The notes beneath the pieces are model-generated. The model saw only the letters and a program-made list of their open reading frames with translations, was not told where the DNA came from and ran no database searches. This document shows, piece after piece, positions 45,026 to 49,643 of a stretch of 64,000 bases of DNA. Source of the stretch: Patescibacteria group bacterium. Lineage in GTDB: Bacteria > Patescibacteriota > Minisyncoccia > Moranbacterales > UBA2206. How positions within the stretch are numbered: the first letter of the stretch is position 1; the number at the start of each line of letters is the position of its first letter. Position numbers and translations under genes: made by a program. The DNA lies in contig JAKLFF010000001.1 of NCBI GenBank assembly GCA_022711335.1, positions 131,016-195,015 on the forward strand, given 5' to 3'.

Positions 45026-45847
45026 TTATTCCAACGGGCTTTTTATGTTTCTTAAAGCAGGATTTGTTACTTTGGTGTAAATCTGCGTTGTTCTAATATT
45101 AGCATGACCCAAAAGTTCCTGCACATACCGTACATCCACTCCGCTTTCCAGAAGATGAGTCGCAAAACTGTGCCGCAAACTATGAAAAGTCGCTTCTTTT
45201 TTGATCCCAGCTCTCCTTAGGGCATTTTCAAAAACTTTCTGGACGCTGCGTTCATCCAATCTGCCGCCGCGATTACTCTCAAATATGTAGTCATAGCCAT
45301 TTTTTAAAACAGCCAAATTCTTTATTAAAGGCAGCAGTTTTTCCGGAAAAATTGTTATTCTGTCCTTATTTCCTTTCGCGCCTTTGATATGAATAGTCAA
45401 TTCATCCAGATTAATATCTTTGACTCTCAGATTTATTATTTCGCTCACGCGCAAACCTGCTCCATAAGCCAATGCAATTAGCAATTTATGTTTCATGTTT
45501 CCTAAAGAGCTAATTATTTTTTCAATTTCAGCTCGAGACAGGACAATTGGCAGTTTACTGGCTGTTTTAGCGAATTTAACATCAATAGCCGAGGAATTTT
45601 TCATTACTTCGCGGTAAAAATACTTAATAGCTTGCAAATGCAAATTTATCGTTTGCGATGATTGTTTCCGGTCTTGTTTTTCCAATAGATATTTTTTAAT
45701 CAAAGCGACATCTGGCTCACGCTTTATATTCTTTGTATATTTAAAATATTCGTTTAAACAACCTAAATAACTTTCAACAGTTCGCGGACTGTAATTTCGC
45801 AGTTTTAGCTCCTGTCTTATTTTTTCCAGCAACTCTTTGAGATTCAT
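45026..45847 (-). CDS. xerC: Xer-type site-specific tyrosine recombinase
   Basis: N-terminal core-binding domain. Catalytic R...HxxR...Y region HSLRHSFATHLLESGVDVRYVQELLGHANIRTTQIYTKV. Confidence 0.85.
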   Translation of the reverse strand: MNLKELLEKIRQELKLRNYSPRTVESYLGCLNEYFKYTKNIKREPDVALIKKYLLEKQDRKQSSQTINLHLQAIKYFYREVMKNSSAIDVKFAKTASKLPIVLSRAEIEKIISSLGNMKHKLLIALAYGAGLRVSEIINLRVKDINLDELTIHIKGAKGNKDRITIFPEKLLPLIKNLAVLKNGYDYIFESNRGGRLDERSVQKVFENALRRAGIKKEATFHSLRHSFATHLLESGVDVRYVQELLGHANIRTTQIYTKVTNPALRNIKSPLE

Positions 45848-45941
45848 GGAATTTATGCTATATTTTATTCATAAATAAGTATTGTATACATTATACAAAA
45901 AGTTCGCATAACACACAACTTTTAGCTATTGTTTAACACTA

Positions 45942-45970
45942 AGTTCGCATATAAACGAGTTATGTGAAAT
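45942..45970. other. Candidate dif-like Xer recombination site (AGTTCGCATAT-AAACGAG-TTATGTGAAAT)
   Basis: The right arm TTATGTGAAAT matches the E. coli dif XerD arm TTATGTTAAAT at 10 of 11 positions. The left arm contains the CGCATA core of the XerC arm. The site is about 95 bp upstream of and divergent from the xer gene. The central region appears to be 7 nt rather than 6, so the call is tentative. Confidence 0.35.
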
Positions 45971-45997
45971 ATTTTTCAGTTTTAATATAATCCACGT

Positions 45998-46615
45998 ATG
46001 GCAGCACCAATAACACACATCGCTTTAACCGAGAAAATTTTTGATAAATTTTTTAAAGACAAAATAAGGAAAGATTTTTTTATTGGCACATCGTTTCCAG
46101 ATATTAGATATTTGAAAGTAATTGATAGAGATAAAACACATTACAAGGATTTATCTATTGTAGACTTGGGAAACGATGAATCTTTTTCGGCAGGAGTAAA
46201 ATTTCATTCAATTCTAGATCACGCTAGAGAAAAATTTATTGTTGAAAATAACACTTATTCATTATGCCCCGAATCAAAATATATTACGCAATCGTTGAAA
46301 ATTTTGGAGGACGAAATTTTTTATCAACACGTCAAGGATTGGACTATCTATACAGAGTATTTGAATGAAATTTTACAAGCGGAAAGAAATTATAGAGTTG
46401 CCGAAAAAGATTTGAAGAAATGGCACTCATTATTACAACAATATTTTCAAAAACAACCTGATGAAGATGCTGTGAAAAATTTTACACTTGGTATTGGATT
46501 CACAGAAGAAGTTACTTCTGAAATAAATGAAAATATTGCAAAAATGAAAACCAATAAAAAAATCATTAAAATAATAGAAAATTTATACAAAAATTTTGAT
46601 TTGCTGATAACGTAA
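45998..46615 (+). CDS. Hypothetical protein (205 aa), no recognisable domain
   Basis: Clean ORF with coding-like composition. It lies in an accessory segment between xer and hicBA. Confidence 0.45.
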   Translation: MAAPITHIALTEKIFDKFFKDKIRKDFFIGTSFPDIRYLKVIDRDKTHYKDLSIVDLGNDESFSAGVKFHSILDHAREKFIVENNTYSLCPESKYITQSLKILEDEIFYQHVKDWTIYTEYLNEILQAERNYRVAEKDLKKWHSLLQQYFQKQPDEDAVKNFTLGIGFTEEVTSEINENIAKMKTNKKIIKIIENLYKNFDLLIT

Positions 46616-46637
46616 CTGAAAAATACATCATATAACA

Positions 46638-46763
46638 GCGTGTATGAGGTTCAAGAAAAAGTGCGTTAATATAATTTTCAGAGGTTGCACTTTTTCTTTC
46701 ACCCAAATTTCGCCTACTCTATGAGAAAATAATAAGGAAGTCGGCGAAACTTCTCATACACGC
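46638..46763. other. Structured intergenic element: outer stem (GCGTGTATGAGG / CTCATACACGC) enclosing two hairpins (AGAAAAAGTGC-N22-GCACTTTTTCT; TTTCGCC-N28-GGCGAAA); candidate small RNA / cis-regulatory RNA / MITE
   Basis: Nested perfect or near-perfect inverted repeats were read directly. The region is 126 nt, has no ORF, and lies about 190 nt upstream of hicB. Confidence 0.3.
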
Positions 46764-46898
46764 AAACGTTGTGGCGAAAAAACTAAAAATTTCCTCTCTA
46801 TTTTTGAAAAGAATTTTTGGCAATTTTGCTCGGTTGAATAGCTTTTTAAATATAATAAAATAACTTTTAACAAAGCAATAGGTCGTCCTTTTCCCGAG

Positions 46899-46927
46899 TT
46901 TGACATATTTTTGCCATTGTGGCAGTA
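46899..46927 (+). promoter_or_regulatory. Putative hicBA promoter (TTGACA-17-CAGTAT) overlapped by palindrome TGCCATTGTGGCA (possible antitoxin operator)
   Basis: -35 consensus hexamer, weak -10. The inverted repeat TGCCA-TTG-TGGCA overlaps the -10 region, as is common for TA autoregulation. Confidence 0.3.
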
Positions 46928-46951
46928 TTACAGCATAGAAGCAATAAATTT

Positions 46952-47170
46952 ATGCGTAAAATTGACTTAAAAAACGTGGTTTGGAAAGAAGGGAAATATT
47001 ATGTTGCCCAGTGTTTGAACGTGGATGTTTCTAGTTTTGGCAAAACTAAAAAGGAAGCCTTGGTGGCGTTAGATGAAGCTTTAGAATTGTATTTTGAAGA
47101 TATTAAGGTTCCGAAAGTGACAAAAATTGAGGAACCGGAACTCATTAAAATGTCCGTTTGCCATGCCTAA
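46952..47170 (+). CDS. hicB: HicB-family antitoxin (start at internal Met, MRKIDLK...)
   Basis: About 72 aa. GKYYVAQCLNVDVSSFGKTKKEALVALDEALELYFE fits the HicB N-domain pattern (YVA.C..L.....G.T.EEA...L.EA.ELY.E). Its stop overlaps the hicA start (ATGCCTAA). Confidence 0.6.
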   Translation: MRKIDLKNVVWKEGKYYVAQCLNVDVSSFGKTKKEALVALDEALELYFEDIKVPKVTKIEEPELIKMSVCHA

Positions 47171-47381
47171 GTTGTATTCATCTTTAGAAATCATCAAAGT
47201 CCTTCAGAAAAAGGGCTTTATTTATATTTCGCAAAAAGGCAGTCATGCTAAATTCAGGAAAATCGGCAGTCCAACTTTGACCGTCATTGTTCCGGCTGGC
47301 AAAAGAGAAATCCCTTTCGGAACTTTTAGATCAATTTTGCGCCAAGCCAATTTAACCGAAGATGATTTTAGGAAAAAATAA
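47163..47381 (+). CDS. hicA: HicA-family mRNA interferase toxin (start at MPKLYSS)
   Basis: MPKLYSSLEIIKVLQKKGFIYISQKGSHAKFRK...LTVIVPAGKREIPFGTFRSILRQANL matches the HicA/YcfA-like consensus, including the GSH catalytic His. Confidence 0.7.
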   Translation: MPKLYSSLEIIKVLQKKGFIYISQKGSHAKFRKIGSPTLTVIVPAGKREIPFGTFRSILRQANLTEDDFRKK

Positions 47382-47503
47382 GTCAAACTTCGTACATTCT
47401 TAAATGTTATGCGAAAATAAATTTTTTATCTTGGCAATAATTTAGGTTTTGCGCATTGAATTACAGTAAAAATTAAATAAATTACCCTATAATAACTAAT
47501 ATT

Positions 47504-47932
47504 ATGAATGACAAAAAGAAAGAAATTCTCAAAAAGCTGAAAAATACCTATTGCCGGCTGCAGCCGTCTGGCATTGAAGGCGTGGGCGTTTTTGCAATAA
47601 GAAATATTCCGAAAGGAATAAACCCGATGATTCCACCAAAAGAAGCGCTGGATGCGCACTGGTATGAATTCAAAACTTCCGAACTTAAGGGTTTGGATAA
47701 GGGAGTAGCAAGAATGATAGATGATTTTCTGGTTATTGAAGAAGATAAAACTGTTATGGTTCCCGAACATGCCTTCAATGGAATGGATATTTCTTTTTTT
47801 GTCAATAATTCCAAGACTCCCAATATGAAAACTACCGATGATGGCTTTACTTTCGTTACACTCCGAAAAATAAAAAAAGGAGAAGAGCTGACTGTCGCAT
47901 ATGAAACGTATGACTATAAATACAAAAAATAG
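47504..47932 (+). CDS. Small bacterial SET-domain protein (putative protein-lysine methyltransferase)
   Basis: GIEGVGVFAIRNIPKG (SET N-region GxG motif), FVNNSKTPNM (degenerate NHSxxPN) and GEELTVAYETYDY (ELxxDY post-SET-like). 142 aa. The antisense 201-aa ORF in the track is rejected. Confidence 0.65.
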   Translation: MNDKKKEILKKLKNTYCRLQPSGIEGVGVFAIRNIPKGINPMIPPKEALDAHWYEFKTSELKGLDKGVARMIDDFLVIEEDKTVMVPEHAFNGMDISFFVNNSKTPNMKTTDDGFTFVTLRKIKKGEELTVAYETYDYKYKK

Positions 47933-47949
47933 CCCCTCCGTATAAAACA

Positions 47950-47975
47950 AGGCCCTGATAAAACTCCCCGCGAAG
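47950..47975. terminator. Bidirectional rho-independent terminator between the SET gene (+) and murJ (-)
   Basis: AAAACTCCC-CGCGAA-GGGAGTTTT flanked by A/T runs. The hairpin shares the CTCCC...GGGAG theme of the dispersed palindromic elements. Confidence 0.55.
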
Positions 47976-47996
47976 GGAGTTTTTATCTTCTTCGCA

Positions 47997-49643
47997 TTAT
48001 AATCCGCTGACTTCCCCAGTATCTTCAACAATATCCTTTCTTTCCCTAAATAATCTTTTTGAAAGAGATTTTTTGAAGTTCATAAATTCTTCAAGCTTGA
48101 TCGCGTGGCACACGGCGGCAAAAATCAGTACGCCGGCGGATGCCGAGACGGAAAATTGCACAAAAACGCCGATAAATGTGTCCATATCAACGGATCTTCC
48201 GACGATATATTTGAGCAGCTGGATTCCAATTCCTGCTGCAAAAGTTGCTAGAACAATTTTTAAGATGGCGCGGATTATTTTTTTGTCATCCAGATTGTCA
48301 TATCGGGTTCTGAGCCAAAACAAAAGCAGCATCATCTGGGCTATGCTAGAAAGGGAAAATGCAATCGCCAGGCTTAAAATTTGATATTTGCCAATGAGAA
48401 GCAGAACGGTTCCGATATTAACAACTTCTGAAACAATTGCGATATAAAAAGGGGTTTTTGTGTCATGCATGGCATAAAACGAACGAGCCAGAAGCGGAAT
48501 AACGCTTTGGGCAAAAAGGCTGGCAGCCAAAATCCCGAGGCACGAAAACGTAAGCTCTGTATCTTCCCAATCGAATTTTCCGGATCCCAAAATAATACGA
48601 ACCAGCTGGGCTCGGAGAAGTAGGATAAAAACGCTGGCTGGAATGACAAAAAACAAAATTTGGCGGAACGTCTGTGAAAATGAAATTATGAAATTTTGGT
48701 CATCTTTTTTGGCCGCAAAATGAGAGAGGGTCGGAAAAACAGCAATAGAAAAAGAAATGCCAAAAATTCCCAGCGGCACGCTTTCAAGGTTTTGGGCAAA
48801 ATTAAAAATTGCCAGGCTTCCCGCAGCCATGGTTGAAGCAAAAATTGTTATCACCAGAAGATTTATTTGTCCGATAGCTATTCCCAAAGTCCTTGGAATC
48901 ATTAGGCGAAAAATTTTCCTTATTTCCTTATTGGAAAAATGGCCGATAAACGACCAGGAGTGGCGATAGCCAAGATTTCTGGCAGCCGGATATTGGACTA
49001 TCACATGCAAAAACGCCCCAAAAACCACCCCCCAAGCCAATCCTATCGGACCCATAAACCTGACAAAAACCAAAACACCGACAATAATGCCAAAATTATA
49101 AAATATGGGTGCCAAAGAATATATCAGAAATCTTTTAAACGAGGTTAAAATTCCCCCGAAAATTCCGGAAATTCCCAAAAACAGCGGACTTAAAAACATT
49201 ATTCTCGTAAAAATAACGACTTGAGAAATTTTTTCGGGCGAGAAGCCGGGAGTAATCATTTTCATAATCCACGGCGCAAACAGCGCGAATATTAACGACA
49301 AAACAGATATAAAAACAATTGCCAGATTCATTATTCCCCCAGCCAATTCCCAAGCCTCGCCTTCTTTTTCATGGCTGATAAGCGACGTAAAAACCGGAAT
49401 GAAAGCGGCGCTAAGCGCTCCGAGAATGAGAAGATTGTAAATCAGATCCGGAACTCGAAAAGCCGCGTAATAAACATCCAAAACATCTCCGGCACCGAAA
49501 GTTGAAGCTAAAAAACGATCTCGAAAAAGCCCAAGCAGACGACTGGCTAGCCCTGACAAAGTTATAACAAATGCCGCTGAAACAACCGATCGGGAGGGCG
49601 AGGAATTCAGGATTATTTTATTGTTTAGAAATTTTTTTATCAT
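47997..49643 (-). CDS. murJ: Lipid II flippase MurJ (MviN)
   Basis: 14-TM MOP-superfamily protein. N-terminal RLLGLFRDRFLASTFGAGDVLDVYYAAFRVPDLIYNLLILGALSAAFIPVF is the MurJ signature region. Confidence 0.9.
   Translation of the reverse strand: MIKKFLNNKIILNSSPSRSVVSAAFVITLSGLASRLLGLFRDRFLASTFGAGDVLDVYYAAFRVPDLIYNLLILGALSAAFIPVFTSLISHEKEGEAWELAGGIMNLAIVFISVLSLIFALFAPWIMKMITPGFSPEKISQVVIFTRIMFLSPLFLGISGIFGGILTSFKRFLIYSLAPIFYNFGIIVGVLVFVRFMGPIGLAWGVVFGAFLHVIVQYPAARNLGYRHSWSFIGHFSNKEIRKIFRLMIPRTLGIAIGQINLLVITIFASTMAAGSLAIFNFAQNLESVPLGIFGISFSIAVFPTLSHFAAKKDDQNFIISFSQTFRQILFFVIPASVFILLLRAQLVRIILGSGKFDWEDTELTFSCLGILAASLFAQSVIPLLARSFYAMHDTKTPFYIAIVSEVVNIGTVLLLIGKYQILSLAIAFSLSSIAQMMLLLFWLRTRYDNLDDKKIIRAILKIVLATFAAGIGIQLLKYIVGRSVDMDTFIGVFVQFSVSASAGVLIFAAVCHAIKLEEFMNFKKSLSKRLFRERKDIVEDTGEVSGL

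Follow-up and report, generated by a model that had tools for sequence, protein, structure and literature searches.

A minimal SET-domain protein gene on a Moranbacteria chromosome and a PurD-like ligase encoded beside its relatives

Small SET enzymes and the SET gene of the window

SET lysine methyltransferases of prokaryotes have been described from M. mazei (Go1-SET), Chlamydia (cpnSET/NUE), Legionella (RomA/LegAS4), B. anthracis (BaSET), and Burkholderia (BtSET) (PMC3980110). By its description, Go1-SET is comparable in its small size to the protein reported here and has an endogenous protein as its target (PMC3980110), while the sequence similarity of the protein reported here to LegAS4 is marginal (E 0.5). 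Compared to these known proteins, the subfamily dealt with in this study has no effector domains, carries a conserved signature of its own, and is found with a different genomic partner. In terms of architecture, three enzymes of like size (about 105–170 residues), namely vSET of PBCV-1 (3kma), Set7 of S. pombe (5h6z), and PFL0690c of P. falciparum (4rz0), resemble our protein in consisting of the SET core only, with no Cys-rich pre- or post-SET region, and they are among the top Foldseek matches at a probability of 1.0. However, sequence identity to them is only 16–20% at TM-scores of 0.4–0.55, and the protein of the window differs by an N-terminal helix, by NNS in place of NHS, and by a Tyr-rich tail; moreover, all three act on histone H3, whereas a CPR bacterium has no histone H3. 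The best PDB matches in profile-to-sequence comparison were the SET domains of the MLL/KMT2 proteins (KMT2C/D, 5f59, 4z4p; E 3e-5, profile positions 17–131), though the middle (SET-I) region aligned poorly and the YxG motif of MLL (EYIG) found no counterpart. In the MLL proteins, a Cys-rich post-SET closes the SET domain, which functions as part of the WRAD complex.

In the window, i.e. the whole stretch of 64,000 nucleotides analysed here, the SET gene extends on the plus strand from the ATG at 47504 to the end of the stop codon at 47932 and encodes 142 amino acids, as evidenced by the open reading frame, the Pfam match, homologues, the codon-position pattern, and public gene calls. The Pfam SET profile (PF00856) matched with 37.8 bits (E 2.7e-9; gathering cut-off 22.4 bits) over nearly its full length, namely positions 1–104 of 105. 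The preliminary description of this DNA, made from the letters alone, had proposed a stand-alone minimal SET-domain protein and a profile search as a check; this proposal held up, with the Pfam match, the profile match to MLL3/MLL4, the fold search, and the conservation tests all in agreement. An identical protein is found at NCBI (HRZ95615.1) under the name [quoted passage not shown]; public annotation already covers the gene, but with a generic name only. Public gene callers reported the plus-strand gene on all 21 of the 21 contigs that carry it. Relative to L088, the closest sequenced relative (77% amino acid identity), substitutions numbered 28, 13, and 58 at codon positions 1, 2, and 3, respectively; of the codon changes, 39 were synonymous and 32 non-synonymous, and the same codon-position pattern was seen in three more distant homologues. 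The open reading frame is almost certainly a real gene for a protein of the SET fold. No curated NCBIfam family covers the 142-residue protein. A membership in a defence system or a phage was considered and rejected, as PADLOC gave no match and PHROG only marginal ones of unknown function.

An AlphaFold2 model built from an alignment of 36 sequences reached a mean pLDDT of 88.3 and a pTM of 0.79, with lower-confidence blocks at residues 41–50 (pLDDT about 70) and 91–100 (pLDDT 71, joint-lowest). In Foldseek it retrieved 189 PDB matches at E≤1e-3, the best 50 of which were all SET methyltransferases at a probability of 1.0; the matches include S. pombe Set7, MLL1/3/4, vSET, SUV420H, SET7/9, and SET8, and at the top of the list stood the minimal enzymes Set7 and PBCV-1 vSET together with MLL1/3/4. 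Among viral structures (BFVD), 26 matches were obtained at E≤1e-3, the named ones being nearly all SET-domain proteins and several being unnamed. The comparison to known SET structures, also proposed in the preliminary description, led to SET methyltransferases. With TM-scores of only 0.4–0.5 and a large rmsd, the model is securely assigned to its fold class but not reliable in its fine geometry.

The alignment, comprising 36 sequences of 59–80% identity, has 16 invariant columns, including G26, G28, N101, N107, E127, E128, and Y133. Its profile matched the SET domains of MLL3/MLL4 (E 3e-5) with GxG, NHSxxPN, and EELxxxY in register, and the motifs quoted in the preliminary description (GVGVFA, FVNNSKTPNM, and GEELTVAYETYDY) were all found in the open reading frame. 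GVGVFA, the GxG motif for AdoMet binding (residues 26–31; 47579–47596, plus strand), aligned in the profile match with GLGLYA of the MLL3 SET domain, with G26, G28, and A31 invariant. NNSKTPN (N101-N102-S103-K104-T105-P106-N107; 47804–47824, plus strand) is a variant of NHSxxPN that aligned with NHSCAPN of MLL3/MLL4; N101 and N107 are invariant, and S103 and P106 are conserved in at least 90% of the sequences. The His of NHS is replaced by Asn in the protein of the window and in most relatives, while 10 of the 36 sequences have His, and both residues are interleaved among close relatives. The C-terminal SET motif GEELTVAYETYDY (residues 126–138; 47879–47917, plus strand) contains the putative catalytic Tyr133; E127, E128, Y133, Y136, and D137 are invariant in this region, and EELTVAY aligned with GEELCYDY of MLL3, ending at the Tyr. 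No conserved Tyr-x-Gly was found in SET-N, where a segment beginning INPF aligned with EYIG without matching it, and no Cys-rich post-SET exists in the 142 residues, the C-terminal tail being rich in Tyr (YETYDYKYKK). The conserved signature of the subfamily comprises LKNTYCRLxPS, W53, F75, and YxTYD. In the alignment, a loop at residues 42–52 (MIPPKEALDAH; 47627–47659, plus strand), located in one of the two lower-confidence parts of the AlphaFold2 model, is three residues longer in the clade of the window than in most relatives, an insertion common to P0003, P0004, and P0006 only.

Distribution and chromosomal setting

A word-indexed search revealed at least 585 homologues at E≤1e-3, with top E values from 1e-89 to 1e-45, nearly all of them 135–145 amino acids long and carrying PF00856. 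Among their source names are Patescibacteria, Jorgensenbacteria, and Parcubacteria, and, at about 60% identity, Woesearchaeota and Nanoarchaeia of the DPANN archaea. Exhaustive searching of 1.84 billion cluster representatives (50% identity clusters) with a profile gave 2318 matches at E≤1e-3, 751 at E≤1e-10, and 62 at E≤1e-30. When one genome per species was scanned, at least 396 species had a relative, at 41–67% identity in CPR and DPANN and at 38–49% in Bacteroidota, Hyphomicrobiales/Beijerinckiaceae, and Chthoniobacteraceae; relatives on viral contigs (giant-virus MAGs and phage-like ones) reached 43% at most. The subfamily has its centre of distribution in the CPR bacteria and the DPANN archaea. 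Such a distribution among relatives had been named beforehand as a point to be examined, and it turned out to be wide within CPR/DPANN and beyond; with at least 396 species-representative genomes and 751 clusters at E≤1e-10, the earlier remark that bacterial SET proteins are uncommon was overstated. Ten longer relatives (209–881 amino acids) showed only SET by Pfam. The protein of the window is 61–67% identical to archaeal copies and 62–64% to other CPR copies, and in a neighbour-joining tree the two domains are intermixed, with the clade of the window and Woesearchaeota grouping at only 19% bootstrap. Exchange of the gene across domains, between CPR and DPANN, would be implied by these comparisons.

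The gene is located between LepA (minus strand) and MurJ. On the LepA side, a tyrosine recombinase gene (45026–45847, minus strand; Pfam Phage_integrase, also so named by NCBI) forms the edge of a variable segment. It is followed on the plus strand by a gene for 205 amino acids (45998–46615), without any significant Pfam, NCBIfam, PHROG, or PADLOC match, by a HicB-like antitoxin candidate (46952–47170; DUF7387, 27.3 bits against a cut-off of 27.9), whose product has 72 amino acids in public gene calls, by a HicA toxin gene (47163–47381; Pfam HicA_toxin, 57.4 bits) overlapping the former by 8 bp, and by the SET gene. The MurJ flippase gene (47997–49643, minus strand; Pfam MurJ) is convergent with SET and is its conserved neighbour, and beyond it lie DUF4012, glycosyltransferase, and Wzz genes.

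Regarding expression signals, a TATAAT hexamer is read on the plus strand at 47488–47493, 10 nt upstream of the ATG, which offers weak evidence of a possible promoter element; a promoter scan upstream of the gene revealed no full −35/−10 pair. Between the hexamer and the ATG there is no Shine-Dalgarno sequence, and so the leader may be very short or absent. Between the convergent SET and MurJ genes, a terminator-like hairpin (47960–47983, plus strand; 9-bp stem, 4 GC pairs) precedes a T-run and folds at −15.5 kcal/mol (z −1.9). Rfam, applied to 45800–48100, yielded only a sub-threshold snoRNA match, taken as chance.

How far the SET gene belongs to the variable segment can be seen from its relatives. 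The stretch separating the recombinase from the HicB-like gene varies among strains of the same organism. In the P0006 contig (73% SET identity), LepA and MurJ are the immediate neighbours of SET, and no recombinase or other gene intervenes, whereas L088 (about 78%) has a recombinase remnant of 124 amino acids and two unrelated small genes in the slot between LepA and SET, with MurJ still adjoining. The HicA/HicB-like pair is absent beside SET in both of these, and HicA is absent also from the other SET loci examined in detail. This synteny, with SET–MurJ kept and the LepA–SET segment variable, led us to reject SET as the cargo of an integrase/HicAB island. As SET and MurJ stay together with or without the integrase/HicA segment, SET is rather a stable gene that flanks a hot spot of insertion. 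The preliminary description had placed the gene in an accessory context next to a toxin–antitoxin module; indeed, HicA lies directly upstream, but that SET is part of this segment is contradicted by the gene order in relatives of 73–78% identity.

A PurD-like ligase beside related SET genes

Neighbour genes were clustered for 86 SET loci, 70 of CPR/DPANN type and 16 of Bacteroidota/Alphaproteobacteria/Verrucomicrobia type. The dominant neighbour was a protein of about 440–460 amino acids with the Pfam domains GARS_A and GARS_C, named “hypothetical protein” by NCBI. Its gene lies within 1.5 kb of SET in 39 of the 70 CPR/DPANN-type loci (34 of the 54 that are well flanked) and in none of the other 16. 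Both genes are on the same strand in 35 cases, and the ligase gene is downstream of SET in 24 and upstream in 15. In the reverse direction the association is weaker: SET was found within 1.5 kb in 21 of 80 metagenome ligase loci and in 8 of the 37 well-flanked ones, which means that the ligase works without an adjacent SET gene. Between CPR and DPANN, the ligase is 54–87% identical, with a mean column identity of 71%.

By its sequence, the ligase is a predicted ATP-grasp enzyme that is PurD-like but is not PurD. It shares with PurD (GAR synthetase) the GARS_A and GARS_C domains and the HK and GPxTGxMG motifs, and its PDB sequence matches are PurD enzymes only (E 2e-28). However, it scored 100–113 bits against a TIGR00877 cut-off of 288, with the N-domain unmatched, and it has RFGYPT where PurD has RFGDPE, so that Tyr and Thr are the equivalents of Asp295 and Glu297 of human GARS. 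These two residues bind glycine and the PRA amine in the human enzyme (PMC2978367), so that neither glycine nor PRA is a likely substrate of the ligase.

Other genes recur at these loci. A second small SET family (about 131 amino acids; canonical NHS and FDY, Pfam SET 67 bits), unrelated to and barely alignable with the protein of the window, occurs beside the ligase or beside SET genes of the present subfamily; 13 ligase loci have a DUF2156/LPG_synthase_C-like gene in common, and a zinc-ribbon protein (CxxC-x17-CxxC) recurs in 16 loci, mostly of Staskawiczbacteria type. A small basic protein was considered as a recurrent neighbour and substrate, but only this zinc-ribbon protein recurs and it is absent from the window, while the other “conserved small ORFs” proved to be shadow frames of the ligase gene. 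A polyamine link was likewise dropped, since the genes for arginine decarboxylase, a saccharopine-dehydrogenase-like protein, and Orn/DAP decarboxylase were seen next to SET and the ligase in L089 only and do not recur. In the 64-kb window itself, neither tblastn nor HMM searches found the PurD-like ligase, and it holds neither a DUF2156-like nor a zinc-ribbon gene and a single SET gene. The SET protein of the window groups with L005, L008, L009, L010, L035, L088, and L090, which have no ligase nearby (unbootstrapped neighbour-joining tree). Still, it has every invariant residue of the ligase-linked copies, and its main difference from them is the longer loop at residues 42–52.

In a comparison of 72 near-full-length ligases, the column that discriminates best between SET-adjacent and SET-free loci was residue 237. 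It is the second Lys in FEH-K-K-LFPGD and corresponds to the Arg of DHKR in PurD. All 38 of the 38 SET-adjacent copies have Lys at this position, while the well-flanked SET-free copies comprise 9 with Lys and 11 with Arg (Fisher 7e-7, calculated without correction for phylogeny, and with a non-adjacent SET gene possibly lying elsewhere in the genome). In an unbootstrapped neighbour-joining tree, the Arg-type ligases fall into at least five separate clades, and some of them are sister to Lys-type, SET-adjacent copies at 74–77% identity. According to the spacing of D217-H-K219 and R292-F-G-D295-P-E297, the Lys before residue 237 is equivalent to K219 of human GARS, which may help to stabilise the transition state, as suggested by the authors of that study (PMC2978367). 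Being tied to SET adjacency, the pattern of Lys237 leads to the specific, correlative hypothesis that the SET protein methylates Lys237 of the ligase.

Proposed activity and competing readings

Considering all lines of evidence, the likely explanation is that this chromosomal gene of Moranbacteria encodes a minimal SET enzyme with a putative endogenous lysine target, for which the ligase provides a lead. The protein would consist of an N-terminal helix, SET-N, a short helical insert, and SET-C, without a Cys-rich post-SET. It would bind S-adenosylmethionine through the GxG and N..S..PN elements and, via the invariant Tyr133 of EELxxxY, methylate the side-chain amine of a lysine belonging to an endogenous protein. 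Judging from fold and motifs, it is quite probably an active AdoMet-dependent methyltransferase, and a protein lysine as its substrate is somewhat favoured. The candidate substrate or pathway partner, known from relatives, is the PurD-like ATP-grasp ligase, with the second Lys of EHK-K-LFPGD as the presumed site; that the ligase has this role in the organism of the window is a tentative possibility. A search of the literature found no data on activity or substrate for any member of the subfamily and no paper on SET proteins in CPR/DPANN or on SET genes in ATP-grasp neighbourhoods. A further-reaching proposal, rather doubtful at present, is that this subfamily and the second SET family are dedicated modifiers of the ligase, which would tune or enable it by methylating the catalytic-loop Lys (EHK-K vs DHK-R), and that the solo copy of the window would act on a ligase encoded elsewhere in the genome.

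Instead, the SET protein might methylate a nucleoid, chromatin-like, or ribosomal protein of the cell's own. Indeed, the prokaryotic SET enzymes with a known endogenous target act on DNA-binding proteins, as does the archaeal Go1-SET on MC1-alpha and a chlamydial SET protein on histone-like proteins (PMC3980110), and a conserved, abundant substrate would fit the identity of about 60–67% between bacterial and archaeal copies. Yet nucleoid proteins are not common to CPR and DPANN, despite this very identity of their SET copies; genes for HU, histones, MC1, Alba, or ribosomal proteins do not recur beside SET in about 160 loci, and the neighbour which does recur is an enzyme and not a DNA-binding protein. 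We consider such a target unlikely, and the substrates suggested in the preliminary description (host chromatin, ribosomal, and nucleoid proteins) found no support in the genomic context.

It is less probable again that the protein is a catalytically dead SET fold serving as a binding or regulatory subunit. The exchange of His for Asn in NHS, the loss of YxG, and a structural superposition that is only moderate (TM 0.4–0.5) could be read in this way, and mutation of the NHS His inactivates SUV39H1. However, every other cofactor or catalytic position is kept invariant by strong purifying selection, and even close relatives may have either His or Asn in the NHS motif, which suggests interchangeable residues and not decay of the site.

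Very improbable is the notion of an episymbiont effector that is sent into a host cell to methylate host proteins. It draws on well-documented SET effectors of pathogens (PMC3980110), on the concentration of the family in CPR and DPANN, largely host-dependent groups, and on LegAS4 being among the best PDB sequence matches, but at an E value of only about 0.5. Against it, the hydrophilic N-terminus shows neither a signal peptide nor a hydrophobic stretch, the single-domain protein of 142 residues has no ankyrin or other targeting domains, no secretion genes lie near SET in the loci examined, and copies of about 60–67% identity occur in symbionts whose hosts belong to different domains. Furthermore, relatives of about 40% identity were found in MAGs labelled Bacteroidota (Chryseolinea, Ferruginibacter, Saprospiraceae) and Alphaproteobacteria. 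These groups are generally free-living.

Finally, a spurious shadow frame of 201 amino acids (47426–48031, minus strand) covers the SET gene and is longer, so that naive ranking picks it, and longest-ORF-first calling lost SET to it in four loci of the same organism; both the preference of the ORF track for this frame and its spurious nature had been stated in the preliminary description and are confirmed. Pfam does not match it, and its only NCBIfam match is at chance level (E 0.38, 10 bits with a cut-off of 220). One antisense frame is open in the window, and this is the case only in its lineage, while in six homologous genes of other organisms every antisense frame contains 1–16 stops. That the antisense frame is the real gene and the SET-like frame a coincidence has next to no chance of being correct and is refuted by these stops and by substitutions that track the plus-strand codon phase, and hundreds of homologues exist for the plus-frame product.

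Returning to the minimal SET enzyme with a putative endogenous target, the gene of the window taken alone encodes an ordinary member of the SET superfamily and confirms minimal SET enzymes as a well-established feature of CPR bacteria. The association of SET with the PurD-like ligase in CPR/DPANN relatives, together with the Lys/Arg pattern, is, as far as the literature search goes, an unreported lead. The ligase is among the most conserved proteins common to CPR and DPANN, and the cross-domain identity of about 60–67% of both proteins points to gene exchange or a shared constraint. For prokaryotic SET proteins, very few of which have an assigned endogenous target, this subfamily gives a concrete candidate lysine. 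If the SET proteins do modify the ligase, a prokaryotic SET protein would for the first time have an endogenous enzyme as its assigned substrate, and a new system of two genes, SET and ligase, or of three where a DUF2156-like transferase is added, would be defined in ultra-small symbionts.

Variable surroundings and start region of the window gene

The segment upstream of the SET gene (window 47504-47932) was examined by setting window 45848-46951 against the four strain loci L001-L004, the relative of about 78% identity (L088), and the P0006 contig of a relative with 73% identity. Between the tyrosine recombinase on the LepA side and the HicB-like gene the strains vary, a 179-aa gene contrasting with genes of 293, 90, and 110 aa, and in the 73%-identity relative the stretch from LepA to SET is wholly empty. 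This segment looks like an insertion hot spot. It also holds a 205-aa ORF (window 45998-46615) without known family, for which searches of Pfam, NCBIfam, PHROGs, and PADLOC brought up nothing significant; gene callers placed it in three strain loci (L001, L003, and the window), but not in L002 or L004. Next to it, the HicB-like (DUF7387) and HicA genes (window 46952-47381) overlap by 8 bp, the DUF7387 match lying slightly below the Pfam cut-off. Here the antitoxin-like gene precedes HicA, opposite to the classical order hicA-hicB.

Immediately before the SET gene (window 47488-47503), a TATAAT hexamer is located 10 nt 5' of the start codon, with no Shine-Dalgarno sequence between the two, and the promoter scan returned no full match upstream of the gene. 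The SET mRNA may be leaderless or carry a very short leader. A match to the plant snoRNA R64 in Rfam (window 47351-47437), running from the 3' end of hicA into the intergenic region, was sub-threshold (26 bits versus a cut-off of 45, E 0.05) and was taken as chance.

Paralogs, a second SET family, and viral relatives

Several loci (L054, L055, L057, L059, L061, L070, L071, and L074) each carry two to four paralogs of the window-type SET subfamily, and in the four archaeal ones (L054, L055, L057, and L059) these tandem copies adjoin a PurD-like ATP-grasp ligase. A second small SET family of about 131 aa was also observed as a neighbour of either the ligase or the window-type SET gene (L099:161-962, L096:585-989, L043:4545-4940, L040:4601-4999, L023:3170-3571, and L025:2117-2518). 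Its score for the Pfam SET profile is 67 bits and its NHSxxPN and FDY motifs are canonical, while its pairwise similarity to the window protein is almost nil. Relatives of the window subfamily, with identities of up to 43%, are furthermore encoded on 135 viral contigs of IMG/VR (loci L171-L250), including giant-virus MAGs and phage-like contigs.

A zinc-ribbon gene of about 60 aa (CxxC-x17-CxxC) immediately precedes SET, with which it shares a strand, in L006:4538-4720 and 15 other loci, for the most part of Staskawiczbacteria type, and is absent from the window; this adjacency could reflect lineage synteny or a functional link.

The neighbouring ligase and its residue 237

The PurD-like ligase, an uncharacterised and highly conserved protein, is absent from the 64-kb window and adjoins the window-type SET gene in 34 of the 54 well-flanked CPR/DPANN loci (for example L006:5001-6795, L015:5001-6773, L043:4545-6780, and L054:3565-5870); the two genes occur in either order and for the most part share a strand. 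At L089:153-5380 the pair adjoins three genes suggestive of polyamine synthesis, namely a pyruvoyl arginine decarboxylase, a saccharopine-dehydrogenase-like gene, and an Orn/DAP/Arg decarboxylase, a neighbourhood found in no other locus. An LPG_synthase_C/DUF2156-like protein of about 280-300 aa repeatedly neighbours the ligase (L030:5424-6329, L007:7929-8771, L141:6677-7573, and 10 more ligase loci) and accompanies ligases with Lys or Arg at residue 237 alike; in MprF proteins, the C-terminal domain acts as an aminoacyl-tRNA-dependent transferase.

Some ligase copies are extended to 772-832 aa (L007:5481-7799, L012:1348-3666, L025:2723-5221, and L065:618-2966), and a 713-aa copy (L023:3759-5900) has a reading frame continuing past the contig end. 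Four of these five loci bear an archaeal label, L065 being labelled Nealsonbacteria. The extra length of the L007 ligase shows a weak LAGLIDADG match, pointing to an intein.

In an alignment of 72 ligases from L005-L170 (L006 numbering), all 38 SET-adjacent ligases revealed the catalytic-loop motif EHK-K, the second Lys being residue 237, while EHK-R, the form of PurD, was present in 11 of the 20 ligases without SET nearby. The Arg-type ligases are spread over at least five clades of an unbootstrapped NJ tree. The lysine at residue 237 may be the target of the SET protein.
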